A model generated the notes under the pieces. The model was not told the DNA's origin, searched no databases, and was given only the letters and a program-made list of their open reading frames with translations. Position numbers and translations under genes: made by a program. 64,000 nucleotides of DNA from an uncultured cyanobacterium (lineage in GTDB: Bacteria; Cyanobacteriota; Cyanobacteriia; Pseudanabaenales; Pseudanabaenaceae): positions 3,456,001 to 3,520,000 of the forward strand of contig OY969811.1 of the NCBI GenBank assembly GCA_963703315.1. Reading direction: 5' to 3'. This document shows, piece by piece, positions 4,680-21,320 of the stretch (its first letter is position 1; the number at the start of each line of letters is the position of its first letter).

Positions 4680-6287
4680 TTATAAATTTTCCTGAAAAGT
4701 GAAATGAAAACTTGTACCTACAGAACAGGATAAATCTAAATTAGCTCTCAATTGTTGCGCCAAAATTTTCACTAATCGGAGTCCGAGCGAATTAGTTCCA
4801 CTAAAGTCAACATTTTCAGGAAGACCAATTCCATTATCTCGAATAATCAAATGTAAATTGCGATCATCGGTAGACTCGTATAAAATCACCTCAATTAATC
4901 CTGTCATCTTGTTTGGAAATGCATATTTAAAAGCATTAGTTAATAGCTCATTCACGATTAGCCCCATGGAAATTGCCATGTCGATATTTAGTAAAGTGGA
5001 ACTAATATCTAGCTTTAATTCAATTTGAGTGATATTAAAACTTGTAGAACTATAGAGATTACTAACCAAACGCTGTAAATATTCACAAAAATCAACTTTA
5101 TCCACATCATGAGATTGATATAACTGCTCATGAATCAGTGACATTGTGTGAATCCGACGTTGGCTGTCTGAGAGTGATTTGAGGGCTTCTACATCATTGA
5201 CATACCGAGCTTGCATTGATAGTAAACTATCAATCACACTCAGATTGTTCTTAACACGATGATGGACTTCTCTTAACAGAACTTCCTTTTCTACAAGGGA
5301 TGCTTGTAGCCTTGTTTCTACTTCCTTTAACTCAGTAATATCTGAAGCAGAACCAATTATTTGCTTAACCGTGCCATCAGAATTGCGTAGAAATACAGTC
5401 TCTTGGCTATAAAACCATTTCCACTTACCATGAACATCTTTCATCCGATATTCAATAAGAAACAAATCTTCCAGTTTTTGATTACGGATATGATGATGAT
5501 GTTCTGCTATTTTTACCAAATCATCAGGATGCATAATAATTGCAAGCATTGACGCACCCATTGCATGAACCTCTAAGGAAGAATAACCAAGAATATGGTT
5601 AATTGTCTGGTTGCAATAAATATTACGTTTTTCTTCAAGATCGTAAATATAGAGAATATTGGGAATTGTATCGGCAATCCTTTGGATAAATTGCTGACTT
5701 TCTTTGAGTGCTTGTTCAGCTTGTTTGCGTGTCAGGGCGATCGCGATATAAGTAACGACTGTCTGCATTAATTGAACTTCTTCTTCTGTAAACTGTCGCG
5801 GCGTATCGAAATACGCGACAATATCACCTAAATGTCGATGTTCGTACTCTAATGGGAAGACAGCGATCGCACCAATACTTTCAGATTGACAGATACTCTG
5901 CAAGGTAGAATCGCTAGGTAGGATCGCGCAATAAGGGAAAGACCGAAATCTTGCTTCTACTTGATGGGATGGATCTTCAAAAAAAGTCTCGATAGATCGC
6001 TTATATCCTTGACTAATACCAATCGATGCTCGGTATTTTAGACTGTGATAAGCATTCGTAGTGATTACGGCTGCTCGTGAAGTTCGTAAAGCAGGACAGA
6101 TTCCATTTAAAGCAATTTGATAGATTTCATTAATTGTTTGCGCGGCATTCAAAGCCGATACAAAATCGTACATTAACTTTAAACGATGCAGTTGCAAATT
6201 TAAGCGATCTTCAGCCATTTGCTGATCGGCGATCGTTTGCACTAATTGAAGATTGACCTCTCTAAGTTCAGGATGTAGTTTAGGCAT
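4680..6287 (-). CDS. GAF/PAS sensor histidine kinase (HisKA_2 type)
   Basis: EVHHRVKNNL H-box, NELLTNAFKYAF N-box, DNGIG; likely start ATG 6287 overlapping the tldD stop. Confidence 0.9.
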   Translation of the reverse strand: MPKLHPELREVNLQLVQTIADQQMAEDRLNLQLHRLKLMYDFVSALNAAQTINEIYQIALNGICPALRTSRAAVITTNAYHSLKYRASIGISQGYKRSIETFFEDPSHQVEARFRSFPYCAILPSDSTLQSICQSESIGAIAVFPLEYEHRHLGDIVAYFDTPRQFTEEEVQLMQTVVTYIAIALTRKQAEQALKESQQFIQRIADTIPNILYIYDLEEKRNIYCNQTINHILGYSSLEVHAMGASMLAIIMHPDDLVKIAEHHHHIRNQKLEDLFLIEYRMKDVHGKWKWFYSQETVFLRNSDGTVKQIIGSASDITELKEVETRLQASLVEKEVLLREVHHRVKNNLSVIDSLLSMQARYVNDVEALKSLSDSQRRIHTMSLIHEQLYQSHDVDKVDFCEYLQRLVSNLYSSTSFNITQIELKLDISSTLLNIDMAISMGLIVNELLTNAFKYAFPNKMTGLIEVILYESTDDRNLHLIIRDNGIGLPENVDFSGTNSLGLRLVKILAQQLRANLDLSCSVGTSFHFTFQENL

Positions 6288-7668
6288 GGGACTCACCTCC
6301 AACGATCGCATTCTTAATTCTCAAACTAGGAGAACCGCAACCAACGGCTAATCCACTTTGTCCACCTTTGCCACAGCCGCCCGACTCATCCCATAAGAAG
6401 TCATTACCGATCGCCTCAATATCTGCAAGAGTTTCAAACACATTTCCTGACAGGGTTACATCTTTGACAGGCTCAGCGATTTGACCATTGCGAATCATCC
6501 AAGCTTCACCTGCGGTAAACGTGAACATCTCGCCATTAGTCATGCCACCTTGCCAGTTTTTGGCATAGACACCCACAGGAATATCGTTAAACAACTCAGC
6601 CACAGGCGTTTTACCACGCTCAATCCAAGTATTAGTCATGCGAACAATCGGTGGGTAATGGTAATCGAGACATCGGGCGTTGCCAGTTACTTGTTCACCC
6701 AATTTCCCTGCGGTCTCACGGGAATGGAGTCTGCCAACTAATACGCCATCTTGAATTAATTGAGTTGTGGTCGCGGGGACACCTTCATCGTCATAGAGAT
6801 AACTGCCGCGATGTTCAGGGGGGGCAGCACCATCAAAAATCTGTAAGTCGGCGGAACCAAATTTGCGACCGATACTCATGGTTTCGAGCATATCGGGATT
6901 TTCGTACAGCATATCGGCTTCGGAAAGATGTCCAAAAGCTTCATGGACAAATAATCCTGCCAAAATCGGATCGAGCACCACCGTATAGGCATTGCCCTGA
7001 ACCACTGGTAAATCAAGCGCCGTTACTGCTCGTTGGGCTGCACCAATTACCTGCGCGTCCAAATTAACTAAATCTGTATAGGAACGCCTTGAGCCAAAGG
7101 TTTCTCGACCAGTCTGGACAGTATCACCATTCCTCGCGGTTGCCGAGCAGCGCATTTCCCAATCCGCCCATTCTTGTTCAATGATCGTTCCTTCGGAAGT
7201 GGCAAATAAAACCTGCTGGGTACAGTCACCATAGCGCACAGCAGTACTAACTACGCGGTCAGATACCGATCGCAAAATTTCCCCATAATGAGCGCATAAA
7301 TTCTTTTTATCAATTAGTGCAATCTGTTGCGGACTTTCTTGAATGAGGGATACTTTTGCTTGAATGGGTTCGACTGCTGCTAGCACAGTTTCCTCATTGC
7401 CAACCCATTTAGCAGCAGCGATCGCCTCTTGTAATTTAATTTCTAAACTATTCAGATCATTAAAACTTGCAAATCCCCACCCGCCGCGATGACAAGCTCT
7501 CACCTGCCCACCAATTGAAATGCCCGTACTCAGAGTTTCGATTTTGCCACTGCGTAAAAATATATCTGCCCCCTGCGATCGCTCTAATCGAATTGCCAAA
7601 AAATCTACATGGGGCTTGTATTGCTGCACTAAACTCGAAATCTGATCTTTAACTTGCCATATATCCAT
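6280..7668 (-). CDS. tldD: TldD/PmbA family metalloprotease
   Basis: HEAFGHLSE zinc motif, RMTNT, CGKGGQ. Confidence 0.9.
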   Translation of the reverse strand: MDIWQVKDQISSLVQQYKPHVDFLAIRLERSQGADIFLRSGKIETLSTGISIGGQVRACHRGGWGFASFNDLNSLEIKLQEAIAAAKWVGNEETVLAAVEPIQAKVSLIQESPQQIALIDKKNLCAHYGEILRSVSDRVVSTAVRYGDCTQQVLFATSEGTIIEQEWADWEMRCSATARNGDTVQTGRETFGSRRSYTDLVNLDAQVIGAAQRAVTALDLPVVQGNAYTVVLDPILAGLFVHEAFGHLSEADMLYENPDMLETMSIGRKFGSADLQIFDGAAPPEHRGSYLYDDEGVPATTTQLIQDGVLVGRLHSRETAGKLGEQVTGNARCLDYHYPPIVRMTNTWIERGKTPVAELFNDIPVGVYAKNWQGGMTNGEMFTFTAGEAWMIRNGQIAEPVKDVTLSGNVFETLADIEAIGNDFLWDESGGCGKGGQSGLAVGCGSPSLRIKNAIVGGESHA

Positions 7669-7763
7669 GTGTAAAGCTCACCAAAAAGATCTATATGCGT
7701 CTCAGAGCTAATTATTACACAAAAAAATCGCCTTTATATCTAAAATATGTATTCAAATTAATA

Positions 7764-7793
7764 TTGACAACTGAATATTTAAAGTGTGATGAT
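7764..7793 (+). promoter_or_regulatory. Sigma70-type promoter upstream of the AbiF-like locus
   Basis: TTGACA 7764-7769, 18 nt spacer, TG at 7785-7786, GATGAT 7788-7793. Confidence 0.55.
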
Positions 7794-7796
7794 GTG

Positions 7797-7860
7797 TCTA
7801 ACAAAACCCGCCAAGGCTATGCGAAAGTACCCTGAAACTGTGCGGGTTCCTTAGTTTTTA
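7797..7860 (+). ncRNA. Candidate AbiF-associated structured RNA (RNA antitoxin)
   Basis: GC-rich stretch in AT-rich DNA: AACCCGC 7805-7811 pairs with GCGGGTT 7842-7848; inner TGC-GAAA-GTA tetraloop; U-rich tail; directly upstream of an Abi_2 gene. Confidence 0.55.
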
Positions 7861-7868
7861 AGATATTA

Positions 7869-8765
7869 ATGTCACGCGATTTCGCCAAACCTGCTAAAAC
7901 TTTTGAAGAGCAGGTGCAATTACTTCAGTCACGGGGAATGATAGTTGACGATTTACAAGAAGCGAGATTTTATCTTCAGCATCTTAACTACTACAGACTT
8001 GGTGCATATTGGCTTGATTTTGAATTAGACCATGCTACACATCAGTTTAAGCCTGATACAAATTTTAAAGATGTGCTTAAACTTTATATTTTTGACCGAG
8101 AGCTTCGGTTGTTAGTTTTGGATGGTATTGAACGAATAGAAGTATCTGTGAGGAGTCAATGGGCTTATTATTTGGCGCATCGCCATAGTCCTCATGCTCA
8201 TCTCGATTCTACTCTGTTCGATCCTAAATATTGGAGAATGAACCTAAATGATTTAACGAAGGAAGTAAATCGTTCAAAAGAGATTTTTATTCAACATCTA
8301 ACAAACAATTACAATGAGGCACTTCCACCAGTTTGGGCAATATGTGAGGTTATGTCTTTGGGCTTGCTTTCTCGATGGTATGACAGCCTTAAACCTGTTC
8401 AAACTCGTCGGGTGATTTCGCGTGTTTATGGAATAAATGAAGATGTTTTGGAGTCTTGGCTTCGTCACCTTTCAGCAGTGCGAAATCTTTGCGCTCATCA
8501 TTCGCGATTATGGAATCGTCAATTTGGGATTACGATAAAAAGCCCTCCCCGCAAGGGTAATGTGATCGCTGGTCAGTTAGTCAAAGGATCTCGCAACCTG
8601 TATAACACTTTGGTGATTCTGTTGTACTTTATGGATACGATCGCCCCAAACCATCATTTGCGATCGCGTCTTCTCAAGTTACTTTCTGAGCAGCCAGAGA
8701 GATTAGTTGCTATGGGTTTTCCTGTTAATTGGCAGCAGATGGGTATTTGGCAAGATATCGTATAG
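7869..8765 (+). CDS. Abi_2 (AbiD/AbiF) family HEPN protein
   Basis: [43 protein letters not shown] and HEPN motif [13 protein letters not shown]. Confidence 0.9.
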
Positions 8766-8802
8766 CGCACCTTCAATCTCTGTGAAAATAAATAGCGATC
8801 GC
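8764..8802. repeat. HIP1-bounded module beta (copies at 9480-9521 and 10649-10690)
   Basis: Shared core TT(C/T)AA(T/G)CTCTGTG(A/C)A(A/G)(A/G)TAAA followed by GCGATCGC. Confidence 0.8.
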
Positions 8803-8845
8803 AAGCCAGTAAAATAAATAGCATCGTTATTTTAGGTTTGTAGTT

Positions 8846-9097
8846 ATGACCTTCACCGAGTTATTGCCGAAGCTTCAAAAACTAAACCCTTCCGATAAAC
8901 TTAGGGCTATTCAGTTTTTAGCGACTGAATTATCAAAAATAGAAAATTTTGCCATTGATGATACTGAATCTCAATCTTGGTTAGAAGCTGATTTGACTAA
9001 TGATTTGCCTGAGTATGACTGGGGAGAAGAGGGAATACCAAGTATGAAGCCTGTGGAATATGTTTCTGGTATTGGTTTAGTGGTAAAGGCAGGATAG
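8846..9097 (+). CDS. Small antitoxin-like protein upstream of the MazF-like toxin
   Basis: 83 aa, operonic with a PemK toxin; LNPSDKLRAIQFL motif. Confidence 0.6.
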   Translation: MTFTELLPKLQKLNPSDKLRAIQFLATELSKIENFAIDDTESQSWLEADLTNDLPEYDWGEEGIPSMKPVEYVSGIGLVVKAG

Positions 9098-9102
9098 AGA
9101 TT

Positions 9103-9468
9103 TTGAATAATCAGCTTCTCAAATGTGGTGATGTTGTTTTTGTTAACCTGCCGTCTCATAACCCTAAAGGACATGAACAGGAAGGGAGAAGACCTGCTGT
9201 AATTGTTGGTGTACCTTTGGGAGATGTGCGTTATCCTGTTGCGGTTGTGGTTCCCTTAACTACTCAATTTGGTGGCTGGGTCAATAGAAATTCTGCACTA
9301 TATCCAATTATTCAAGCTGGAACTGCGGGATTACCTCAGAAATCAGTTGCTTTGTGCGATCAAATAAGGGCGGTGGATATCCAGAGAGTAATTGGATATT
9401 TGGGTAGCCTAAGTTTTGAGCAATATTTGCCGATTATTGATGGAGTAAGACGGGTTTTGGATTTGTAA
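9103..9468 (+). CDS. PemK/MazF family toxin
   Basis: GDVVFVNLP...GHEQEGRRPAVIV...VVPLTT...CDQIRAVD; TTG start. Confidence 0.9.
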   Translation: MNNQLLKCGDVVFVNLPSHNPKGHEQEGRRPAVIVGVPLGDVRYPVAVVVPLTTQFGGWVNRNSALYPIIQAGTAGLPQKSVALCDQIRAVDIQRVIGYLGSLSFEQYLPIIDGVRRVLDL

Positions 9469-9530
9469 TAATTTATAAGGCGATCGCCTCTTTAAGCTCT
9501 GTGCAGGTAAAGTGCGATCGCCTAAGTTTT

Positions 9531-10085
9531 TTAGTTAAACCTACCCACAAAATTTGGCACAGAGGTTTTTAAAACATTGAGCAAGTCTGTAACCGACATG
9601 GGTGGCTTTTTTAAATCACTTGCCTGAGTCTGGAGAACTTGCCTGATCTCTTGAGGGAATAAATCATGTAGATAGGTTAAAAATTGATCGGCGCTTTGGG
9701 CTTCAACTTGATATTGGCTCAGAACTACTGCGGGAAAGTGCTTCAGATTTTCGGTGACAATTACATGAGCTTTGGCAATCAAAGCCGCCGCTAAAACATG
9801 GCGATCGCCTTCATGGTTATCCATACAAGGAATTAAGCGATCGGTCACATTGAGCATCGCATCAGGGAAAGCCCGATTAATTTGCACTTCTAGCCGATTC
9901 ACTTGCTGGCTCTGCATTTTCTGATTTGCTACTAAATTTCGTAGCGCCCCGTCTAAGATTTCTTGTGACCAATGCACTTGATACAGTCCAGCCTCAGCAG
10001 CACGAAGCAAAGTATCTCTCAAATACATTGGATAAAGCACACAGGAGTCAAGCACAACGGGAAATCGAGAGGATTGCAAACTCAT
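9531..10085 (-). CDS. PIN domain protein
   Basis: VVLDSCVL, DRHVLAAA, IVTENLKHF. Confidence 0.85.
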   Translation of the reverse strand: MSLQSSRFPVVLDSCVLYPMYLRDTLLRAAEAGLYQVHWSQEILDGALRNLVANQKMQSQQVNRLEVQINRAFPDAMLNVTDRLIPCMDNHEGDRHVLAAALIAKAHVIVTENLKHFPAVVLSQYQVEAQSADQFLTYLHDLFPQEIRQVLQTQASDLKKPPMSVTDLLNVLKTSVPNFVGRFN

Positions 10086-10561
10086 TACGCTGGTGAAATA
10101 GCCTCGGTTAAGGGGACATCCTCTGGCGTATAAAATCCCAACTCTTGACTAAGTTCAGTAAGCTCACTCAAAGCCTGATGACGCTGAGCATCTCTCTGTT
10201 TTTTGTACTGCATTAAATCTTGAAACTGGATACGGCGATGCGTACCCACCTTGATATAGGGGATATCGCCTTGATCTAACAATTTATATAAATAAGGACG
10301 GGAAACATTGAGCAAGTCAGAAGCTTGAATCGTACTCAAATGCAAGTTATAAGGAACCAAGGATATAACTTGTCCCAATGCCATCATGTGAATAACTTGC
10401 CGAAGGGCTTGATATATGGAGTCTGGCAACATGATTTCTTCACCGTCTAGACCGACAAGCTTGGGATATGCTTTTTCTAGCATTGCCTCTAGGCGCTGTA
10501 TTGGTAAGGTGTCTGGCTCAGGCGCAAAGACAGAATCTGGTAGGTCGTTCAACATATACAT
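10085..10561 (-). CDS. Excisionase-like (HTH_17) DNA-binding protein, partner of the PIN protein
   Basis: LSTIQASDLLNVSRPYLYKLLDQGDIPYIKVGTHRRI. Confidence 0.85.
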   Translation of the reverse strand: MYMLNDLPDSVFAPEPDTLPIQRLEAMLEKAYPKLVGLDGEEIMLPDSIYQALRQVIHMMALGQVISLVPYNLHLSTIQASDLLNVSRPYLYKLLDQGDIPYIKVGTHRRIQFQDLMQYKKQRDAQRHQALSELTELSQELGFYTPEDVPLTEAISPA

Positions 10562-10601
10562 ATTAAAGATTGCTGATGTTGAGATGGGTTGATTTTTGAA
10601 G

Positions 10602-10627
10602 TAAGTGTAATAAGTGTAAATATACTA
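10602..10627 (-). promoter_or_regulatory. Candidate -10 box and tandem operator of the Xis-PIN operon
   Basis: TAAGTGTAA x2 (10602-10619); minus-strand TAGTAT at 10622-10627. Confidence 0.4.
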
Positions 10628-10748
10628 TATGCCAATAAGAGCGATCGCGCGATCGCCCCTTTAATCTCTGTGAAAGTAAAGGGCGATCGCAACTATTTAA
10701 CTCAATCAAATTGATAAAATTTTTGTTAGTAGATTTAGTGACTAAGAA

Positions 10749-11888
10749 ATGACAAATCAGGACAGTCCAATATTACCTAGATTTCGTGTTTATGGGGAGA
10801 ATGCAGAGTTTGAGACTGAAAGACATCTAGAATGGTTGTTTTGGTATACGGTTCTTCCCAAAATTGGACTGAAGCCACTAAAAAGTCAGCATACTTGCAG
10901 AGAGGGGATTTGTGACATATTGGCGAAAGGAACCCAGAATCAACTCGTCATCATAGAGTTAAAAAATGTTGAAGATTCTCATGTTATTGAACAAATTACT
11001 GCATATTTCGATGCCCTTATCGAAGAAAAGCCCTTTAGCGAACAAATTGATTATACTAAACCTATTGACCTATACACTGTCTGTCCAACCTATAGGAATC
11101 GTACTGTAACAACATTAAAACACCACAAACTTAAATTTACTCTCTTAGCCTATGCAGTAAAAAGCAGCAATCAAGGCTTTATACTCACATTGTACGAATG
11201 GCTCACAAAGACAGAAATAGCCAAAATAGATATCCCAATAGCTGCTGAAATCGAACCTACAATTAATTTGCCTGATCCTCCAAAAGCTTTTGTTAACCTT
11301 TTAGGGAACTGTTCAGAGAATGAAAAGAAATGGGCTATTGAAATTCGTGATCAGATTTATCAATTGTCGCAATCTTTAAACTATAGAATTTATGAGAAGC
11401 CAGATGGTAAATGGGTTCGTTTTGAAAGAAACAAACAAAATCCTATCGCTGAGATAGGTTGGGAAAACAAAAGAGAAAGTCTTGCTGTTTATCTATGGCT
11501 GCCATTTGTGACTATTAATGGACAATGGAACATGAAGGCAAGAGCAAGAGATAGCTATAAAAGAACTGCCATGATGAGACTTTGGATAGTTGATGGCACT
11601 GTTCAATATGTTGCTTACATAGAAAATCAGAGAAAAAGTTGGCTAGTTGTTACTGATGAAGAAATTCAAACGAGCAAATTTACTAAGCCAGTAAAGTTAC
11701 AGAGAAAAGCTGACAGTGCTTACTGGAAAGGTCTAGCAATGCCTACAGATGTCTACCTTAATTTAATGGAATTGACTGCTCGTTCTCATTCTCTAAATGC
11801 TTTTGTAGAGTTGGCACTTGAACATTCTTTACAGAGACTAACTAAAAGTCGCCAGAAGAATATTATCGAAGTAGAATCTGACTTTTAG
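10749..11888 (+). CDS. NucS-like PD-(D/E)xK endonuclease domain protein
   Basis: N-terminal ETERHLE...GICDILA...LVIIELK...EQITAY; C-terminal part unrecognised. Confidence 0.7.
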   Translation: MTNQDSPILPRFRVYGENAEFETERHLEWLFWYTVLPKIGLKPLKSQHTCREGICDILAKGTQNQLVIIELKNVEDSHVIEQITAYFDALIEEKPFSEQIDYTKPIDLYTVCPTYRNRTVTTLKHHKLKFTLLAYAVKSSNQGFILTLYEWLTKTEIAKIDIPIAAEIEPTINLPDPPKAFVNLLGNCSENEKKWAIEIRDQIYQLSQSLNYRIYEKPDGKWVRFERNKQNPIAEIGWENKRESLAVYLWLPFVTINGQWNMKARARDSYKRTAMMRLWIVDGTVQYVAYIENQRKSWLVVTDEEIQTSKFTKPVKLQRKADSAYWKGLAMPTDVYLNLMELTARSHSLNAFVELALEHSLQRLTKSRQKNIIEVESDF

Positions 11889-12028
11889 TGATCGCCTTTA
11901 CTACACTTATTTAGCTAAAATTTCATAAACCAATCAATTGTTTAACATCATTTAAAACGATCGCCCCTCTAATCATGATTTTACTTTTAGCAAATAGCGA
12001 TCGCCTTGTGATGTGATTATTTGAGAAG
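11888..12028. repeat. HIP1-bounded modules gamma, delta and epsilon (epsilon interrupted by the IS)
   Basis: Starts at the TAG of the upstream gene; homologous to 14048-14162, 15081-15169 and 15779-15954. Confidence 0.85.
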
Positions 12029-13321
12029 TAGGGCAACCGCACACGTTTCTTAACAAACTAGCGAACATTTCTTAACGAGGAAAAAAGGGAGAAACGGGAG
12101 AATTGAGGATATTTAGAAAGATAAGTCCAAAATGCTAGCAACAGTCAGTCCCGTCGGATTAATCGAAACCCACTTTGGGAACTTGCAAGATCCCAGAGCA
12201 GCACACAGTATCCTGCATAAGCTACTCGACATATTGATAATCACGATTTGTGCAGTGATCTGTGGAGCCGATAACTTCGTAGCAATCGCCGAATATGGCA
12301 AAGAGAAAGAAGAATGGTTAAAGACATTTTTGGAATTAGCAAACGGCATACCGTCAGTAGATACATTCGAGAGATTATTTGCGAGACTGAAGCCAGAAGC
12401 ATTGCAAAAAAGCTTTATTAGCTGGATGGAAGCAGTCCATGAATCCACCGACGGAGAATTGATAAACATAGATGGCAAAACCCTGAGAGGAGCAAAGGAA
12501 GCAGGAAATTCGCGTAGTCTGATTCATATGGTGAGTGTGTGGTCAGCATCACAACATTTGGTATTGGGACAGCAAAAAGTGGACGAGAAATCCAATGAAA
12601 TAACAGCGATTCCATCATTGCTAAAAATGTTAGCGATACGAGGTTGTGTGGTGAGCATAGATGCAATGGGATGTCAGACCGAAATCGCGAAAACAATCAT
12701 CGAAGAGGGAGCAGATTATGTGTTAGCACTGAAAGGCAATCAAGGTAATCTCCATAAAGATGTGCGTGAACTATTTACCTCTGCACGAGAACAGAACTTC
12801 AAAAATATTGAACATCAGTTCTATGAAACGGTTGAGAAAGGACATGGGCGCATTGAAACTCGTCGCTATTGGACAATGGGTAATACCGAATACTTAATCG
12901 GTGCAGAGAAATGGATAGGTTTGAAAAGTATTGGTATGGTTGAATCAGAGCGCATTATAAATGGAATTATTTCTACTGAGCAGCGATACTATCTGCTTAG
13001 TCTTGAGAGTGATGTCCACAGATTTTCCCAATCTGTCAGAAATCACTGGAGTATTGAAAATCAACTACATTGGATTCTTGATGTTGGTTTTGGTGAAGAT
13101 GCTTCGCAATCCTGCCGAGGCTATATTGCCGAAAACTTGGCTGTTATACGTCATATCAGTTTAAATTTGTTGTCAAGAGATAAAAACAGTAAGGTCGGTG
13201 TCAAGACAAAACGTCTTAAAGCTGGCTGGAACAACAACTATCTTAAGGATATCCTGAGTACCTTAAACATAGTCGCTGTCTAAATCTCGTTAATTGTTAA
13301 GAAACGTGTGCGGTTGCCCTA
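12029..13321 (+). mobile_element. ISAs1-family insertion sequence, complete (1293 bp)
   Basis: Perfect 28-bp terminal inverted repeats TAGGGCAACCGCACACGTTTCTTAACAA (12029-12056 and 13294-13321); 10-bp target duplication ATTTGAGAAG (12019-12028 and 13322-13331). Confidence 0.95.
12132..13283 (+). CDS. ISAs1 family transposase
   Basis: IDGKTLRG, KSNEITAIP, IDAMGCQ, LKGNQ, HWSIENQLHW. Confidence 0.95.
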   Translation: MLATVSPVGLIETHFGNLQDPRAAHSILHKLLDILIITICAVICGADNFVAIAEYGKEKEEWLKTFLELANGIPSVDTFERLFARLKPEALQKSFISWMEAVHESTDGELINIDGKTLRGAKEAGNSRSLIHMVSVWSASQHLVLGQQKVDEKSNEITAIPSLLKMLAIRGCVVSIDAMGCQTEIAKTIIEEGADYVLALKGNQGNLHKDVRELFTSAREQNFKNIEHQFYETVEKGHGRIETRRYWTMGNTEYLIGAEKWIGLKSIGMVESERIINGIISTEQRYYLLSLESDVHRFSQSVRNHWSIENQLHWILDVGFGEDASQSCRGYIAENLAVIRHISLNLLSRDKNSKVGVKTKRLKAGWNNNYLKDILSTLNIVAV

Positions 13322-13397
13322 ATTTGAGAAGCGATCGCCCCAAACCATTCAAGACGGATATGTTACTCTAGCAATACGTTACTGGTGCTGTAAAACT

Positions 13398-13649
13398 ATG
13401 AAACTACAAATTCAAGGCATTAAATCAGGGCAGACGATTCAACTGCTAGATATAGTTAATATTCCTGATGGAACAGTATTTCTGGAAATTGAAGCAGATA
13501 AACCTAAAGATAAAAGCGCAAGAATAGCAAGACTAAATCGTATATTCGGCGCATGGCGCAACCAGCAAGACATTGATCTAATATTTGCGGATATTGACAC
13601 ACAACGCCATCGTGACTATGGCAGAAAAATCGACTCCTTTGACTTCTAA
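13398..13649 (+). CDS. Putative VapB-like antitoxin
   Basis: 83 aa directly upstream of VapC; IFGAW motif. Confidence 0.65.
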   Translation: MKLQIQGIKSGQTIQLLDIVNIPDGTVFLEIEADKPKDKSARIARLNRIFGAWRNQQDIDLIFADIDTQRHRDYGRKIDSFDF

Positions 13650-13655
13650 TTATCC

Positions 13656-14048
13656 ATGTATTTACTTGACACCAACATCTGTATTGCACTGCTAAAAGGC
13701 AATTCTCAAGTTATTTCATCTTTTAATGCTTGTGCTGATGAATGCTATATTTCCACAATTAATGTTGCCGAACTTTATAAGGGAGTCTACTGCTCACAAC
13801 GAATAGAACAGAACCTTGCATCACTTGAGCTTTTTCTCCAAGATATGTCAATTGTCAGCTTCGATCTATTAGCTGCCAAAGAATTTGGCAAAATCCAATC
13901 AGAACTTAGACAAATCGGTAAACCCACAGGCGAACTAGATACCATGATTGCAGCTATAGCGCGATCGCGTCATGATCGAGTAGTTACGAATAACACAAAA
14001 GACTTTATCAATATTTCTGGATTAGGGTTGGAAAATTGGATCGTTTAG
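13656..14048 (+). CDS. vapC: VapC (PIN) toxin
   Basis: MYLLDTNICI...AELYKG...DTMIAAIA...VTNNTKDF. Confidence 0.9.
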   Translation: MYLLDTNICIALLKGNSQVISSFNACADECYISTINVAELYKGVYCSQRIEQNLASLELFLQDMSIVSFDLLAAKEFGKIQSELRQIGKPTGELDTMIAAIARSRHDRVVTNNTKDFINISGLGLENWIV

Positions 14049-14162
14049 CGATCGCCTTTACTGCACTTATTCAAATAGCGATTTGGCTAAAATCTGATAA
14101 ACCAAGCATTTGTTTAACATCATTTAAAGCGATCGCGATTTTACTTTTAGCAAATTGCGATC
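14048..14162. repeat. HIP1-bounded modules gamma and delta
   Basis: HIP1 at 14048 (shares the G of the TAG stop) and 14129; core TAAACCAAGCATTTGTTTAACATCATTTAA. Confidence 0.9.
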
Positions 14163-14222
14163 TACCTATAATAACAACTATATAACCTCTATAATAGGTA
14201 GATAGTCTTAGACTTAAAACCT

Positions 14223-14579
14223 ATGCTCAAAGAACTTTTTGGTGGTAAAATACCCGAACAGGTTTTGCTATATCTGGAAAATTATGAAGAAGGCTACGGC
14301 AAAGCGATCGCCGATACCTTTGAGATATCCTTGAGTTCAGTACAGAAACAACTGCAAAAATTTGAAGACTCAGGCTTATTAGTTAGTCGCTTAGTCGGCA
14401 AAACTCGCCTCTATACATGGAACCCGCGATCGCCCTTTGTAACGACCGTTAGAAACCTACTAGCCCAGCGTCTCAAAGTCACCCCACCCGAAGAAATCAA
14501 AGCTTACTACCGCCAACGCCGTCGCCCTCGCAAAGCTGATAAACCCCTTGGAAATACACAAAACCTCATCCCTAGCTGA
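14223..14579 (+). CDS. Winged-HTH protein
   Basis: YGKAIADTFEISLSSVQKQLQKFEDSGLLVSRLVGKTRLY. Confidence 0.75.
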   Translation: MLKELFGGKIPEQVLLYLENYEEGYGKAIADTFEISLSSVQKQLQKFEDSGLLVSRLVGKTRLYTWNPRSPFVTTVRNLLAQRLKVTPPEEIKAYYRQRRRPRKADKPLGNTQNLIPS

Positions 14580-15081
14580 AATCGCTGCGATCGTCTCAGA
14601 TACGCTTACCAAAGCAAACATTATCGCCGTGCTAACAGGTGGCGGAGTCGTTACAGTGTACTCAGAAAACGAATATCAATCTGACGATCTCGACTTTATT
14701 TCTCCCGCTAGTTCTCAAAAGCTAGAAGCAGCCATGTCTCAAATAGGATTTAGCAAGGAAAGCAGATATTTTATCCATCCAAATACAACTTATTATGTTG
14801 AGTTCCCTCCATCCCCCCTAATGATTGGGGAACAGTACATTGATTACAAAGAATGCACCGTGCAGAAAATTGGTGAATTAGAATTACACATTCTGACCCC
14901 GACTTTATGCGTCATGGATCGCCTTGCAGGTTTCTATCACTGGAACGATCGTCAAAGTCTTGATCAAGCAGTCATGGTTGCAAAACGTCATCCGATAGAT
15001 TTTAAAAGAGTGAAGTTATGGTCAACCAAGGAAAAGCAACAGAAAAAATATCAGGACTTTTTAGATAGGCTGCAAGATTAG
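14548..15081 (+). CDS. Putative nucleotidyltransferase-like protein
   Basis: VLTGGGVV...YQSDDLDF (GG...DxD, Pol-beta-like); overlaps the HTH gene; TTG start. Confidence 0.6.
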   Translation: MEIHKTSSLAEIAAIVSDTLTKANIIAVLTGGGVVTVYSENEYQSDDLDFISPASSQKLEAAMSQIGFSKESRYFIHPNTTYYVEFPPSPLMIGEQYIDYKECTVQKIGELELHILTPTLCVMDRLAGFYHWNDRQSLDQAVMVAKRHPIDFKRVKLWSTKEKQQKKYQDFLDRLQD

Positions 15082-15209
15082 CGATCGCCCTTACTGCACT
15101 TATTCAAATAACGATTTAGCTAAAATCTCATAAACCAAGCATTTGTTTAACATCATTTAAGGCGATCGTCATTGATCGTTTATGGCATACAGCTTGGATA
15201 GGCGATCGC
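15081..15209. repeat. HIP1-bounded module gamma plus tail
   Basis: HIP1 at 15081 (shares the G of TAG), HIP1-like at 15162, HIP1 at 15202. Confidence 0.9.
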
Positions 15210-15214
15210 TAAAT

Positions 15215-15499
15215 TTAATAAACCTCATCATGAGAGCCAATATTTAACAATAAAATCGCATCCAGATCAGATTCAGACTTCTGTACAAACTCAAACAAAA
15301 TGCGATAGTTATAATCCACAGAACAAGCCCAAATATCTGAGAGATCGCCAACCAGTTTATGCGTTCTCAAACTTGGATGATAAGGATCTTCCACTAGTTG
15401 ACGCAACGTTTTTTCAATTAAAGGACGCAGTTGCGGACTTTTGCGAATTAGACGTTTAAAAGCTCGCTGAGATTTAGCAGTCCAATCAATATTTCTCAA
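15215..15499 (-). CDS. YafQ/RelE family mRNA interferase toxin
   Basis: DPYHPSLRTHKLVGDL..WACSVDYNYRILF...IGSHDEVY. Confidence 0.88.
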   Translation of the reverse strand: MRNIDWTAKSQRAFKRLIRKSPQLRPLIEKTLRQLVEDPYHPSLRTHKLVGDLSDIWACSVDYNYRILFEFVQKSESDLDAILLLNIGSHDEVY

Positions 15500-15720
15500 C
15501 TATCCAACTCCGCCAAAAAATCATCAACAGAACCAGATTTGAATTTACCTTCTCGGTACTCCTGCTGAACCTCTCGAACTTCTTTAACAACTTGCTGCCG
15601 TTGACGCAACTTTAAACGATTATTCAACACGTCAATTAAAGCAACTTGATCATCCAAAGACAAAGCATCTACGGCATTGAGAGCTTCTTGAAATAGGGAT
15701 GTTTTTAAGGCTTGACTCAT
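15496..15720 (-). CDS. Putative antitoxin
   Basis: 4-bp overlap with the toxin; EYREGKFKSGSVDDFLAEL tail. Confidence 0.7.
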   Translation of the reverse strand: MSQALKTSLFQEALNAVDALSLDDQVALIDVLNNRLKLRQRQQVVKEVREVQQEYREGKFKSGSVDDFLAELDS

Positions 15721-15778
15721 AGGATTATTTATGAAAATTTACACTATAACCTCGGTTGTCATTATACTTCAGAAAAAA

Positions 15779-15954
15779 GCGATCGCCCTTCACAGCAATT
15801 TATTCAAATAGCGATTTAGCCAAAATCTCATAAACCAAGCATTTGTTTAACATCATTTAAAGCGATCGCGATTTTACTTCACTCAACTTGTGATCGCCTT
15901 GTGATGAGATTATTTGAAAGGCGATCGCTGTTCATGGGATGGATAGGCGATCGC
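15779..15954. repeat. Chain of HIP1-bounded modules gamma-delta-epsilon-tail
   Basis: HIP1 or HIP1-like at 15779, 15862, 15890, 15921 and 15947. Confidence 0.9.
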
Positions 15955-15970
15955 AGTGACTAAAAACTAA

Positions 15971-16495
15971 TTAGCGAAAAACTTCTCTAATAGCCTCTAT
16001 AGGAAGACAAACCGACAAAGTTTCATTAAAAGGGACAAACTGAAATTTCTGAATGTAGTAGCTTTGCTTAATCTCATTACTAGGATCAACCCTAATCGCA
16101 TAAACACCAACATTTTGAGAACCATCAAGTATTCTCAAGAAAGCATCAATCATTAAGGCTTGCCCTATACCCATACCCTGACAGCTTTTATCTACTGCCA
16201 ACTTGCCAATCAAAACCACTGGGATCGGGTAACTAGGGAGCTTATCTTTATTGGGAAATGATTCGGGGAAATCAATCAAGCTCGCACTGAGAGTGTAATA
16301 GCCTAAAACTTTTAGATCATCCGCGATCGCGACAAATATTTTTGCAACACCCAACTGATCATTTTTGAGAGCATATTGCTTGATATATATCGATAGCTCT
16401 TGCTCATCATGTTCATCACCACAATCAAAAGCAAGCTTTCTCAAACCGCTCTTACTGAAACCACACTCAGCCAAAGACTTGATTACAAAATTCAT
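15971..16495 (-). CDS. GNAT acetyltransferase toxin (AtaT/TacT-like)
   Basis: FDCG, LGYYTLSA, IPVVLIGKLAVDKSCQGMGIGQALM. Confidence 0.85.
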   Translation of the reverse strand: MNFVIKSLAECGFSKSGLRKLAFDCGDEHDEQELSIYIKQYALKNDQLGVAKIFVAIADDLKVLGYYTLSASLIDFPESFPNKDKLPSYPIPVVLIGKLAVDKSCQGMGIGQALMIDAFLRILDGSQNVGVYAIRVDPSNEIKQSYYIQKFQFVPFNETLSVCLPIEAIREVFR

Positions 16496-16498
16496 TAA

Positions 16499-16768
16499 CT
16501 ATCGAGTTTGACTGGTTCTTAACAATGCTGCTAATTCCTGAGATAGCTTAGGCGGATTTTGCATCATTTCCACAAACTTTTGCGCGTCATTTTCAGACAG
16601 CACTAATACTTGATTGTCATAAGAAGCTTTCTCAAGGCTTTGAGACTGTACCGACTCTCTAGCAAGCCTAGAATTGCCAAAACCACGCATGAGACGTTTC
16701 CGCACCGAAAAACTCAATGCAGACCTAAAAACTTTGCGATTTACCTGTAAGGGAATCTGAGCCTTCAT
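16499..16768 (-). CDS. DUF1778-like antitoxin with atypical N-terminus
   Basis: C-terminal LVLSENDAQKFVEMMQNPPKLSQEL; upstream of the GNAT toxin. Confidence 0.6.
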   Translation of the reverse strand: MKAQIPLQVNRKVFRSALSFSVRKRLMRGFGNSRLARESVQSQSLEKASYDNQVLVLSENDAQKFVEMMQNPPKLSQELAALLRTSQTR

Positions 16769-16860
16769 TATTTTGCACTGCTTTAACTCGCTCTAATGCT
16801 TTTGCAGTAACACAATTTTTACACACATAGCTGCTAAATAGGTAGATAAAAACAAATTAA

Positions 16861-16927
16861 GCGATCGCGGTTTTATTTTTTAGCAAGTAGCGATCGCCTT
16901 AAATGAGATTATTTGAGAGGCGATCGC
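16861..16927. repeat. HIP1-bounded modules delta and epsilon
   Basis: HIP1 at 16861, 16890 and 16920; spacers homologous to 15862-15928. Confidence 0.85.
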
Positions 16928-16956: not shown

Positions 16957-17033
16957 GAGTCGTGAAGCGTAAAGCCCCCGTCTTTCAATCTGCCCTGTAC
17001 ACAAAGTGGATTGAAAGACGGGGAATATGTCAA
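16957..17033 (+). mobile_element. Miniature IS200/IS605 (IS891-like) element, no ORF
   Basis: Preceded by TTAC; starts GAGTCGTGAAGCGTAAAGCCCCCG; 15-bp hairpin 16976-16990/17009-17023; ends GTCAA. Confidence 0.7.
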
Positions 17034-18421
17034 TAACTGGTTAATTCTGCGCTAGCTGGTGGCTCCTTTGTTGTACCAAATGCAATTCGTAAAAATGGTG
17101 GTGCGAGGAACGTGGTCAAAATCACCATGATGATAATCGCCACTTCTAGAGGTTTGTCGATCGCACCACTAGCCGTACCAATACCAGCAAAGACTAGACC
17201 AACTTCACCACGCGGAACCATACCAATACCGATCGCTAAGCGGTTGACATTAGGTATACCGAAAACCACCCAACCTGTGATCACTTTGCCCACGATCGCC
17301 ACTAACAGCAGGAACACGGCAATCAACAAGCCACTTCGATTTTCAGGAATCATCGGATTGAGGACACTGAGATCGGCTCTAGCACCGACAGTTACAAAGA
17401 ATACGGGTACGAGTAAATCCGCTACAGGTTTAATCAGTTCATCTAACTCATGGCGAGCATCGGTTTCATCTAGCACCAATCCTGCGGCAAAAGCTCCTAA
17501 GATTGCTTCCAGATGGATGGCATTGCCGATAAATGCCATCGCATAGGCAAAGATAAAAGCAGGAATGATGATACTGCCACGAGTTTGGAGTTTATCAACT
17601 ATTGCCACAAAACTTTTGTTAAAAAAGCCACCTAAAAGGATCGCACCAAATAAGAAGGCGATCGCGCTGATTAACAGAATTGCCACATTGGTAATATCAA
17701 CTTCACCTGTTTTCGCCAAACTTGCGACTACTGCTAAAACGATGATCCCTAATACATCATCAATGACAGCCGCACCCACGATGATTTGCCCCTCTTTCGA
17801 TTTTAGCTGACCGATTTCGGCAAGCACCTTAGAAGTAATGCCAATACTGGTTGCCGTGAGTGCCGCCCCTGCAAAAATCGCAGGAATTGCCGCAACATGG
17901 AAAAAGTACATTAGTCCCATTGTCCCTGCCGCAAAGGGAGCCGTCACACCGATAAAAGCAACTACGAAAGCTTGAATGCCGACTTCCTTGAGTTGACGGA
18001 TATCTGACTCTAAACCAATCTCAAACAGAAGGACAATCACGCCCAATTCTGCAATAACAGAAATTACTTCACTTTGTTCTGCAAATATGCTGTTGACGGC
18101 TTCGGGTGACAATTGATTCAACCACTGCAATCCCGACATTACTACAGAGTCCGATGCGGTAAAACCGCCTTCAGGAAAGATGACTAAGCGTAATGCTGAG
18201 ACCCCAATGATTACACCAGCTACTAATTCTCCTAAAACAGGAGGTAAGTCTAGTCGCTTGGCAATTTCACTGCCAATTTTGCTCGCAACGTAAATTAGGA
18301 CTAAGGTGAGCAATACCCCTGAAAGAATTATTGGCGCATTTTCTGACTCGGCAGTAGCAAGTAACGGTTGCGGTATCCGAAGTCCAGATAAATGATGCGC
18401 GATCGCCGCGATCGAAAACAT
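17030..18421 (-). CDS. Cation:proton antiporter (CPA2, NhaS-type)
   Basis: Multi-TM; LLFEIGLE, ATSIGIT, AVIDD, PRGEVGL. Confidence 0.9.
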   Translation of the reverse strand: MFSIAAIAHHLSGLRIPQPLLATAESENAPIILSGVLLTLVLIYVASKIGSEIAKRLDLPPVLGELVAGVIIGVSALRLVIFPEGGFTASDSVVMSGLQWLNQLSPEAVNSIFAEQSEVISVIAELGVIVLLFEIGLESDIRQLKEVGIQAFVVAFIGVTAPFAAGTMGLMYFFHVAAIPAIFAGAALTATSIGITSKVLAEIGQLKSKEGQIIVGAAVIDDVLGIIVLAVVASLAKTGEVDITNVAILLISAIAFLFGAILLGGFFNKSFVAIVDKLQTRGSIIIPAFIFAYAMAFIGNAIHLEAILGAFAAGLVLDETDARHELDELIKPVADLLVPVFFVTVGARADLSVLNPMIPENRSGLLIAVFLLLVAIVGKVITGWVVFGIPNVNRLAIGIGMVPRGEVGLVFAGIGTASGAIDKPLEVAIIIMVILTTFLAPPFLRIAFGTTKEPPASAELTSY

Positions 18422-18519
18422 AAACTATTTTCCTTTAGAGATAGGGATACTTCAAAAAACCAGATTTCACATTATTACGGTTTCGGCTATTTGTCTCTAG
18501 TACTGTCAGTTACAGTTTT

Positions 18520-18634
18520 TATAGCAAAGCAAGAGTTGGTTAGTACAAACTAAAACCCAAGAAGCGAGTTGCGGCGCGGAGCGCCGCAACTCGCCTTCTG
18601 GTTTTGTGTCCTAAGCAAAACTTTTTTTGCTATA
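18520..18634. repeat. MITE-like repeat with TATAGC...GCTATA ends (copy 1)
   Basis: Similar to 56450-56563; internal GC-rich hairpin. Confidence 0.7.
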
Positions 18635-18817
18635 CAAGAAATTTCTCTGTATCGCTAGCCATAGAACCTCATTAGTTACAACGCTTTGCTCTCAAACCCA
18701 AAACAAGAGATTTGTTTGCTCGAAAATTGCTTTAAAAAAGAGAGTTGCCTCAAGGGGCAACTCTCTTTTAGATATAAATTTAGATATAAAAAAGTGACAG
18801 GATGTGTCACTTTTTTA

Positions 18818-20832: not shown

Positions 20833-20894
20833 CCAATAAGTGAACCCTGAACAGGTTACTTCCCATTAATGTTTTGGAAAGAGAGCTTATAACG

Positions 20895-21320
20895 ATGAAC
20901 TATAGAATTCTTGGACTGATTGCTGGTTTGACTCTTACTGCTGGAATTGTTTCATGTAGCGCAACATCAACTCCTACTCAGCAAACAACTCCCGCCACTC
21001 AATCCACAGCTAAACCTGCTGATGCGATGAAAAGCGATGCCATGAAAAATGATGCCATGAAAAGCGATAAACCTGCGGATGCCATGAAAAGCGATGCCAT
21101 GAAAGATAAAACTGGCGATGCCATGAAAAGCGATGCTATGAAGAGTGACAAGCCTGCTGACGCAATGAAAAGTGACGCAATGAAAGGCGATGCGATGAAA
21201 AGTGACGCAATGAAAGGTGATGCAATGAAGAATGACGCAATGAAGAATGACAAGCCTGCGGATGCCATGAAAAACGATGCGATGAAAAGCGACAAACCTG
21301 CCGATGCGATGAAGCAATAG
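20895..21320 (+). CDS. Methionine-rich MXKDX-type repeat lipoprotein
   Basis: Signal peptide with lipobox IVSC; 16 DAMK repeats. Confidence 0.85.
   Translation: MNYRILGLIAGLTLTAGIVSCSATSTPTQQTTPATQSTAKPADAMKSDAMKNDAMKSDKPADAMKSDAMKDKTGDAMKSDAMKSDKPADAMKSDAMKGDAMKSDAMKGDAMKNDAMKNDKPADAMKNDAMKSDKPADAMKQ

Follow-up and report, generated by a model that had tools for sequence, protein, structure and literature searches.

Toxin-antitoxin gene cassettes separated by co-oriented HIP1-bounded modules in a freshwater cyanobacterium and its genus

We describe an array of eight gene cassettes, mostly toxin-antitoxin (TA) pairs together with an AbiD gene and a NucS-like gene, that lies between tldD and a Na+/H+ antiporter gene in a 64-kb window of the complete genome (4.57 Mb, 42% GC) of a freshwater cyanobacterium (contig OY969811.1; "the window" is this whole stretch of 64,000 nucleotides). 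The cassettes are separated by co-oriented modules bounded by the HIP1 octamer (GCGATCGC, a palindrome). Such arrays are real and genus-wide, and they are a new kind of variation on the gene-cassette array: this one behaves much as integron arrays and sets of dif modules do and is a member of neither. Comparison with relatives reveals gain, loss, and reordering of cassettes, which supports the proposal of an earlier sequence-only reading that the modules are joints for adding, losing, and shuffling cassettes. HIP1 is likely the seam at which the genes are swapped. We propose, with about even confidence, a one-way array of cassettes exchanged horizontally, in which host recombination acting on DNA from natural transformation, and not an array-linked integrase, would account for cassette gain, swapping, and loss.

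Structure and distribution of the modules

The host genome contains about 8,200 exact HIP1 octamers (8,189 non-overlapping; 8,231 in an overlapping count), the hallmark of a cyanobacterium. Against this background the module positions claimed by the sequence-only reading are all correct, with every module on the plus strand: beta at 8764, 9480, and 10649; gamma at 11888, 14048, 15081, and 15779; delta at about 11977 (a copy without its left octamer), 14129, 15862, and 16861; and epsilon at 11997, 15890, and 16890. The 30-nt gamma core quoted there recurs exactly at 14098, 15131, and 15831 and with two mismatches at 11926, and the open reading frames (ORFs) ending at 11888, 14048, and 15081 do close with a TAG whose G opens the octamer (GTGATCGC at 11888). 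Three features had been overlooked: a fifth module, zeta, at 15921-15954, with a variant at 15162-15209; an ISAs1-type insertion sequence that splits the first epsilon, is framed by a 10-bp target duplication (12019-12028 and 13322-13331), and has six further copies among the genome matches listed; and the AbiD gene (7869-8765), which is the first cassette.

The pattern is not a product of chance: by blastn, gamma has five copies in the 4.57-Mb genome, four of them in the array, and beta has six, three of them in the array. The fifth gamma and two of the three remaining betas bound a second small array in the same genome (C1:196201-199024). The complete gamma-delta-epsilon-zeta block is matched in 34 of 36 same-genus genomes, where its matches are mostly clustered 0.6 to 1 kb apart, and in 0 of 24 genomes of other families; a beta pattern is matched in 20 of the 36 and in none of the 24. 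A collection of 72,556 plasmids yielded no match to the block, and viral contigs no exact match to a gamma pattern. Folding of the modules runs mainly through the two bounding octamers, the fold-back of gamma being weak (z, −1.9 to −2.7), and a search for structured RNA found no Rfam family for the modules (one irrelevant match at E 0.51).

Module polarity is strict. Of 27 loci compared, some of them overlapping, 25 have a module and 15 hold two or more; the 82 copies of beta, gamma, and epsilon in those 15 are all co-oriented. None of the 42 ORF clusters common to several loci, a set into which flank genes, shadow ORFs, and overlapping loci were also counted, flips relative to module polarity.

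Counted across the genome, modules are tied to variable TA cassettes and are not scattered, in keeping with the link that the sequence-only reading had supposed. A survey of exact HIP1 pairs spaced 24 to 45 bp outside ORFs (by our own crude gene calls) found 103 pairs versus 28.7 in simulation (maximum 44 in 200 runs). Such a doublet lies within 500 bp of 32 of the 97 TA genes from five Pfam families versus 3.8 to 8.1% of control ORFs; for Uma2, a further accessory family, there is no enrichment (2 of 75 genes), PIN genes alone give a weak signal (2 of 21), and two thirds of the TA genes are without a doublet in their vicinity. Doublet spacers recur as families, 115 of 189 having a look-alike, with 270 links versus 1 to 7 in three shuffles. 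There are 24 genomic loci with two or more doublet clusters, and many of these, judged from ORF starts, are TA arrays with module families of their own. Similar arrays with other module families, overlooked earlier, are found across this genome. Other tandem HIP1 runs (up to 16 octamers, some gene-free) and TA arrays lie at C1:1371740-1372234, 2190944-2193414, 2731718-2748068, and 4510150-4516912, and each of them has a spacer family peculiar to it.

Cassette movement among relatives

The genes for tldD and the antiporter have different neighbors in most of the relatives' loci examined, and the interval between them was compared through metagenome contigs only; the wider comparison draws on 20 regions from related genomes. 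In these 20 regions the window's cassettes recur in altered orders, with different housekeeping genes around them, and are interspersed with additional TA pairs, HNH nucleases, DUF29, XisI, and a small number of nondefense genes. Breakpoints between relatives fall at HIP1 or in the modules, as the sequence-only reading had expected. Of 51 noncoding ends of homology to the window, 27 are at most 4 nt away from a HIP1-like octamer versus an expectation of 22% from noncoding positions (P = 1e-6, a value overstated by the nonindependence of kin); for ends inside genes the count is 1 of 28. Depending on the genome, the VapBC cassette starts after the third, fourth, or fifth octamer of the block, and what comes after it is gamma, epsilon, or a shortened gamma. 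Some joints enter gamma in midspacer or use non-HIP1 overlaps.

The cassettes also differ sharply from their surroundings in divergence. At fourfold-degenerate sites, cassette genes are 0.73 to 0.88 identical to the window versus 0.42 to 0.59 for neighboring genes (at least 250 amino acids) in 8 of 8 genomes; because cassettes are so much more alike between species than the genes beside them, this silent-site contrast points to horizontal transfer and recent exchange between species.

Two orthologous sites were compared in 30 genomes each. At the first, nine loci, from close species and 89 to 100% identical to the query, have the flank stop followed by HIP1; seven of these go on with beta, and in one a cassette begins right at the first octamer. 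The right HIP1 of beta is followed there by four different cassette starts, among them the window's MazE-type (four loci) and NucS-type (one locus). At the second site, beta is present in 5 of 30 loci (one decayed), with a different sequence after it in each. Empty orthologous sites occur only in species about 80 to 88% identical, plus one at 94%.

Metagenome contigs from two studies, besides run X1 (probably the source sample), cover the array itself, with joints called at 90% likeness. In one contig of run X5, position 15078 is followed directly by 16888, the two sides sharing 11 letters in which HIP1 lies, and the contig continues into the antiporter flank; because the join runs through to that flank, cassettes 7 and 8 are absent from its locus. 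In a contig of run X2 the tldD flank leads straight to beta and cassettes 1 to 3 are missing. Contigs of X2 and X3 place AbiD after beta and a HIP1(-like) site, from which we infer that at the left end of the window's array a beta was likely deleted by way of a 6-nt overlap, not a HIP1, at 7753-7758. Loose contig ends accumulate at 10647-10651, 10690, 14046-14057, and 15919.

Several observations concern cassette contents and decay. AbiD occurs with an internal deletion, which in region L022 ends at a HIP1 inside the gene (window position 8660), and decayed VapBC and NucS-like genes carry internal deletions at short overlaps (decayed-cassette loci L021:12314-12674, L022:8825-9223, L035, and L089). 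Cargo other than TA genes includes a gene of the Beta-lactamase family (serine hydrolase) together with a cNMP-binding regulator, found in two species (L028:10725-12638; L032:1618-3538). Within a beta/gamma cassette array of genome G007 (L031:6263-10064), a C2c8/TnpB-like gene, under the C2c8 cutoff, is followed by a CRISPR-like repeat array.

Proposed host recombination and competing explanations

We favor recombination by the host, given that the order and locus of cassettes vary, that HIP1 marks about half of the joints, that polarity is single, and that cassettes are far more alike between species than neighboring genes. DNA would be taken up from a congener; RecA would anchor it on a common module block (40 to 180 bp) or a common neighboring cassette; the other end would be joined at an 8- to 11-bp HIP1 microhomology, or sometimes at another microhomology; HIP1-to-HIP1 deletions would remove cassettes or parts of modules; and TA pairs would accumulate because losing them is toxic to the cell. 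The ComEC and DprA genes are intact. Joints in mid-gamma or at non-HIP1 overlaps are such as a general microhomology process would give, and the absence of inversions also fits host recombination. Homology-facilitated illegitimate recombination is RecA-dependent and uses short patches, and its combination of one homologous anchor with one microhomology joint after transformation would yield the observed joints, although the part of that report drawn on documents neither a cyanobacterial case nor ordered arrays (PMC6382021). HIP1 within homology arms raises integration in PCC 7002 up to 7-fold, and >100-fold if methylated (10.1101/2024.09.10.611283). The 352-bp excision at smtB and the resolution of a PCC 7002 plasmid (cited in PMC13756078 and PMC4390886) share with our arrays a crossover between HIP1 copies; those were single HIP1-bounded events, whereas the system described here is genus-wide, repeated, and polar.

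A number of points weigh against this account. Recombination was never seen in action, the evidence being a comparison of assembled sequences, and modules of 40 to 90 bp are short anchors for RecA. By the strict rule, 24 of the 51 noncoding ends lie off HIP1, although some merely reflect fading alignments. Contig joints called at 90% likeness may stem from other species, and contigs of run X1, probably the source sample, show no joint. In the more distant species the matching position of empty sites lacks HIP1; how an array is founded is therefore not explained by the model, nor is the narrow band of doublet spacings, with 99 of the 103 pairs at 25 to 39 bp and none at 40 to 44.

That narrow band is among the features that favor a dedicated HIP1-centered cut-and-join activity, encoded elsewhere, that would move HIP1-to-HIP1 units and use beta and gamma like attI and attC; we regard this as possible but unlikely. 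It would also suit the many joints that share only 8 to 11 bp, the place of beta as first element after the flank gene with a variable cassette next, and a report of site-specific recombination at HIP1 in PCC 7002 (cited in PMC4390886 and PMC9239245). In its favor, too, conservation of the last two bases on the cassette side of right octamers (beta, 26-27 of 41; gamma, 19-21 of 36) is below that of the inner bases (beta, 33-40 of 41; gamma, 33-36 of 36), but the corresponding genome-wide test of outer versus inner decay is not significant (38 versus 24; P = 0.10), and cleavage or cut-and-fill footprints (2- to 3-bp duplications in HIP1) are not enriched genome-wide. Such an activity would have to ignore about 8,200 HIP1 sites, and no inversions are found despite the perfectly palindromic core of the octamer. 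The candidates would be the single conserved Xer-like recombinase of the genus or some nuclease or ligase; a dedicated enzyme, if it exists, would be a cassette system of a new type and an engineering tool for cyanobacteria.

No recombinase is linked to the arrays. As the sequence-only reading had stated of an integrase, the window has no Pfam tyrosine-recombinase match, and the serine resolvase model PF00239 has no match in the genome. PF00589 gives three matches in two genes, one of them for a TetR-family protein whose match is weak and below the cutoff and which we rejected as a linked recombinase. The other is the single clear tyrosine recombinase, a single-copy, 507-amino-acid Xer-like protein (L054:8115-9638; C1 about 1754114-1755637). 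Its N terminus is an extra, truncated copy of a catalytic-like domain without the HxxR and Tyr motifs, and its C terminus has what we take to be the full R-K-H-R-H-Y set. Matches in 46 of 47 same-genus genomes, one of them a fragment, mark it as a core gene of the genus and keep it a candidate for the dedicated activity, yet no module lies beside it in 12 of 12 loci shown. Joint octamers also lack arm-core-arm symmetry: around 24 of them, matches between the two arms average 3.1 of 11 versus 2.9 genome-wide, and the 28-bp pdif site (two 11-bp arms and a 6-bp spacer) was not found. Acinetobacter pdif modules (PMC13141974) nonetheless resemble our arrays in host recombination (as proposed for ours), in their TA cargo, and in shuffling without a linked integrase; our arrays differ in having no XerC arm/6-bp spacer/XerD arm site, no alternating inverted sites, and no inversions, and in being chromosomal, the block having no match in the plasmid collection. 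The TetR-family protein (415 amino acids; L053:9586-10833) is weakly like XerC/XerD models in its C-terminal part (E about 1e-4), and a HIP1 triplet and a BrnT-type TA pair adjoin its gene. No Y1_Tnp gene is linked to the modules: the genome's one such gene (RAYT-like; G000 C1:348969-349250) lies between paired repeats of its own that are unrelated to HIP1, with no exact HIP1 in the 1.7 kb inspected.

We entertain only tentatively the related idea of a cyanobacterial, integron-like gene capture without a linked integrase, in which a host enzyme would recombine paired (methylated) HIP1 copies 25 to 39 bp apart, beta would be the attachment site, and any HIP1-bounded stretch of DNA from cyanobacteria would be a potential cassette. 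If true, this would provide a concrete function for HIP1 and explain the large TA and defense load of these genomes.

The modules could instead mark joints without making them, as SDR5-like selfish micro-insertions or slippage products colonizing HIP1 in gene-poor, AT-rich islands, a reading we find distinctly improbable. SDR5 of heterocystous cyanobacteria (Elhai et al. 2008, via PMC4390886, PMC5861425, and PMC13756078), which the excerpts of these sources report from Nostocaceae only, splits one HIP1 between bases 3 and 4; its 21 nt are close to our spacers of 17 to 31 nt, both being repeats of about 20 to 30 nt tied to HIP1 (PMC4390886, PMC13756078). The look-alike families of doublet spacers and the gene-free tandem runs of up to 16 octamers also favor such bystander repeats. 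Our modules, however, have an octamer on both sides of each spacer, chain in a fixed order, and border gene cassettes; no SDR5-type split of one HIP1 was found, an insert that regenerates HIP1 being formally indistinguishable. The confinement of gamma and beta to arrays, the lack of enrichment at Uma2 genes, and the joining of one cassette end (VapBC) to different block octamers in different genomes all speak against bystanders, and strict co-orientation is unexpected for independent insertions into a palindrome.

The analogy to attC arrays drawn by the sequence-only reading holds only for the architecture; it fails for the attC motif pair and IntI, and no covariation was seen in the beta stem. 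The best IntI score (TIGR02249) in the genome is 32 bits, and 38 for the Xer-like protein, against a cutoff of 265. The motif pair RYYYAAC...GTTRRRY with crossover at G/TT, which we take to be the attC core, occurs in 1 of 38 gamma-centered stretches, and the array's joints are at HIP1, not G/TT. The stem of beta shows one pair with two-sided change versus 1.9 in shuffles of 40 copies. In layout, the tandem co-oriented cassettes of variable content found here satisfy the description of integrons and of clusters of attC sites lacking an integron integrase (CALINs). Sedentary chromosomal integrons and CALINs, as the excerpts of PMC4889954 and PMC8618304 portray them, share with our arrays the tandem cassettes of one or two ORFs, homogeneous repeat joints of one polarity, TA and defense cargo, gene-less units, and a variable first position; they differ in IntI, in attC core motifs, and in joints away from the HIP1 octamer, and our arrays are many, small, and at different loci, with several unrelated module families per genome. 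That the array is a true integron remnant with gamma as a divergent attC and IntI lost is scarcely credible, for the tandem cassettes, the stop codon overlapping the site, the TA cargo, the homogeneous 89-bp sites with weak fold-back, and the reported integrons of some cyanobacteria (PMC4889954) are outweighed by the contrary evidence on IntI, the motif pair, joint position, and, over 40 copies of beta, covariation.

The function of HIP1 has been an open question for three decades (PMC5861425, PMC13756078). Its published links to recombination or repeats, in the excerpts of PMC4390886, PMC5861425, PMC13756078, and PMC9239245, are single HIP1-bounded events and SDR5, and we found no published account of HIP1-jointed TA arrays in PMC open access and bioRxiv, with subscription journals and supplements outside that scope. 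The arrays are natural, countable substrates: modules and joints are both well delimited, and at one site there are species whose difference is a single cassette. The proposal that HIP1 is a recombination seam is therefore directly testable. They are also a place to seek new cyanobacterial defense genes, as AbiD, HNH nucleases, NucS-like genes, and unnamed genes lie among the TA pairs.

Array contents and neighboring features

The features of the array and its two flanks are collected in Table 1. Cassette 3 ends in a doubled HIP1 at 10641-10656, and the 177-amino-acid gene of cassette 6 (14548-15081) may be nucleotidyltransferase-like, by motif alone.

Table 1. Cassettes, modules, and flanking genes of the array (window coordinates)
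Feature	Coordinates	Strand	Basis or remark
tldD/PmbA-family gene, left flank, outside array	6280..7668	-	Pfam
Cassette 1: AbiD/Abi_2 gene (7869-8765)	7753..8765	+	Pfam; left joint without HIP1 here
Module beta 1	8764..8802	+	Left octamer mostly gone (only its CGC remains)
Cassette 2: predicted antitoxin (8846-9097, no Pfam match) and PemK/MazF toxin (9103-9468)	8803..9479	+	Pfam
Module beta 2	9480..9521	+	
Cassette 3: HTH_17 (10085-10561) and PIN_3/RSP_2648-family (9531-10085)	9522..10648	-	Pfam
Module beta 3	10649..10690	+	
Cassette 4: NucS_C-domain gene, predicted nuclease (10749-11888)	10691..11888	+	Pfam
Modules gamma 1 (shortened), delta 1, and left part of epsilon 1	11888..12028	+	
ISAs1-type insertion sequence, DDE_Tnp_1 transposase (12132-13283)	12029..13321	+	Pfam
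Cassette 5: predicted VapB (13398-13649) and VapC/PIN (13656-14048)	13331..14048	+	Pfam
Modules gamma 2 and delta 2	14048..14164	+	
Cassette 6: winged helix-turn-helix (14223-14579) and 177-amino-acid gene without Pfam match (14548-15081)	14165..15081	+	Pfam
Module gamma 3 and zeta variant (15162-15209)	15081..15209	+	
Cassette 7: predicted antitoxin (15496-15720) and ParE/RelE/YafQ-like toxin (15215-15499)	15210..15778	-	Pfam
Complete block gamma-delta-epsilon-zeta	15779..15954	+	176 bp, five HIP1(-like) sites
Cassette 8: TacA-like antitoxin (16499-16768) and GNAT toxin (15971-16495)	15955..16860	-	Pfam
Modules delta 4 and epsilon 3, right array end	16861..16927	+	
Na+/H+ antiporter, right flank, outside array	17030..18421	-	Pfam

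Inverted repeats, terminator- or REP-like, stand on either side of the antiporter gene (16975-17022 and 18517-18637), and GC-rich hairpins resembling them sit in empty array sites of relatives. Another small cassette, at 717-1267, comprises two short ORFs that look HicAB-like by eye and is bounded by a different, C/A-rich family of HIP1 modules; a homologue was found within the gamma array of a relative (region L029). At 20874-21320 a predicted lipoprotein of 148 amino acids with DAMK-type pentapeptide repeats adjoins a sigma/anti-sigma pair and a thioredoxin-like gene. Elsewhere in this genome, a transposon-sized stretch lies within a CRISPR-like repeat array (G000 C1 about 3062000 and 3063500).

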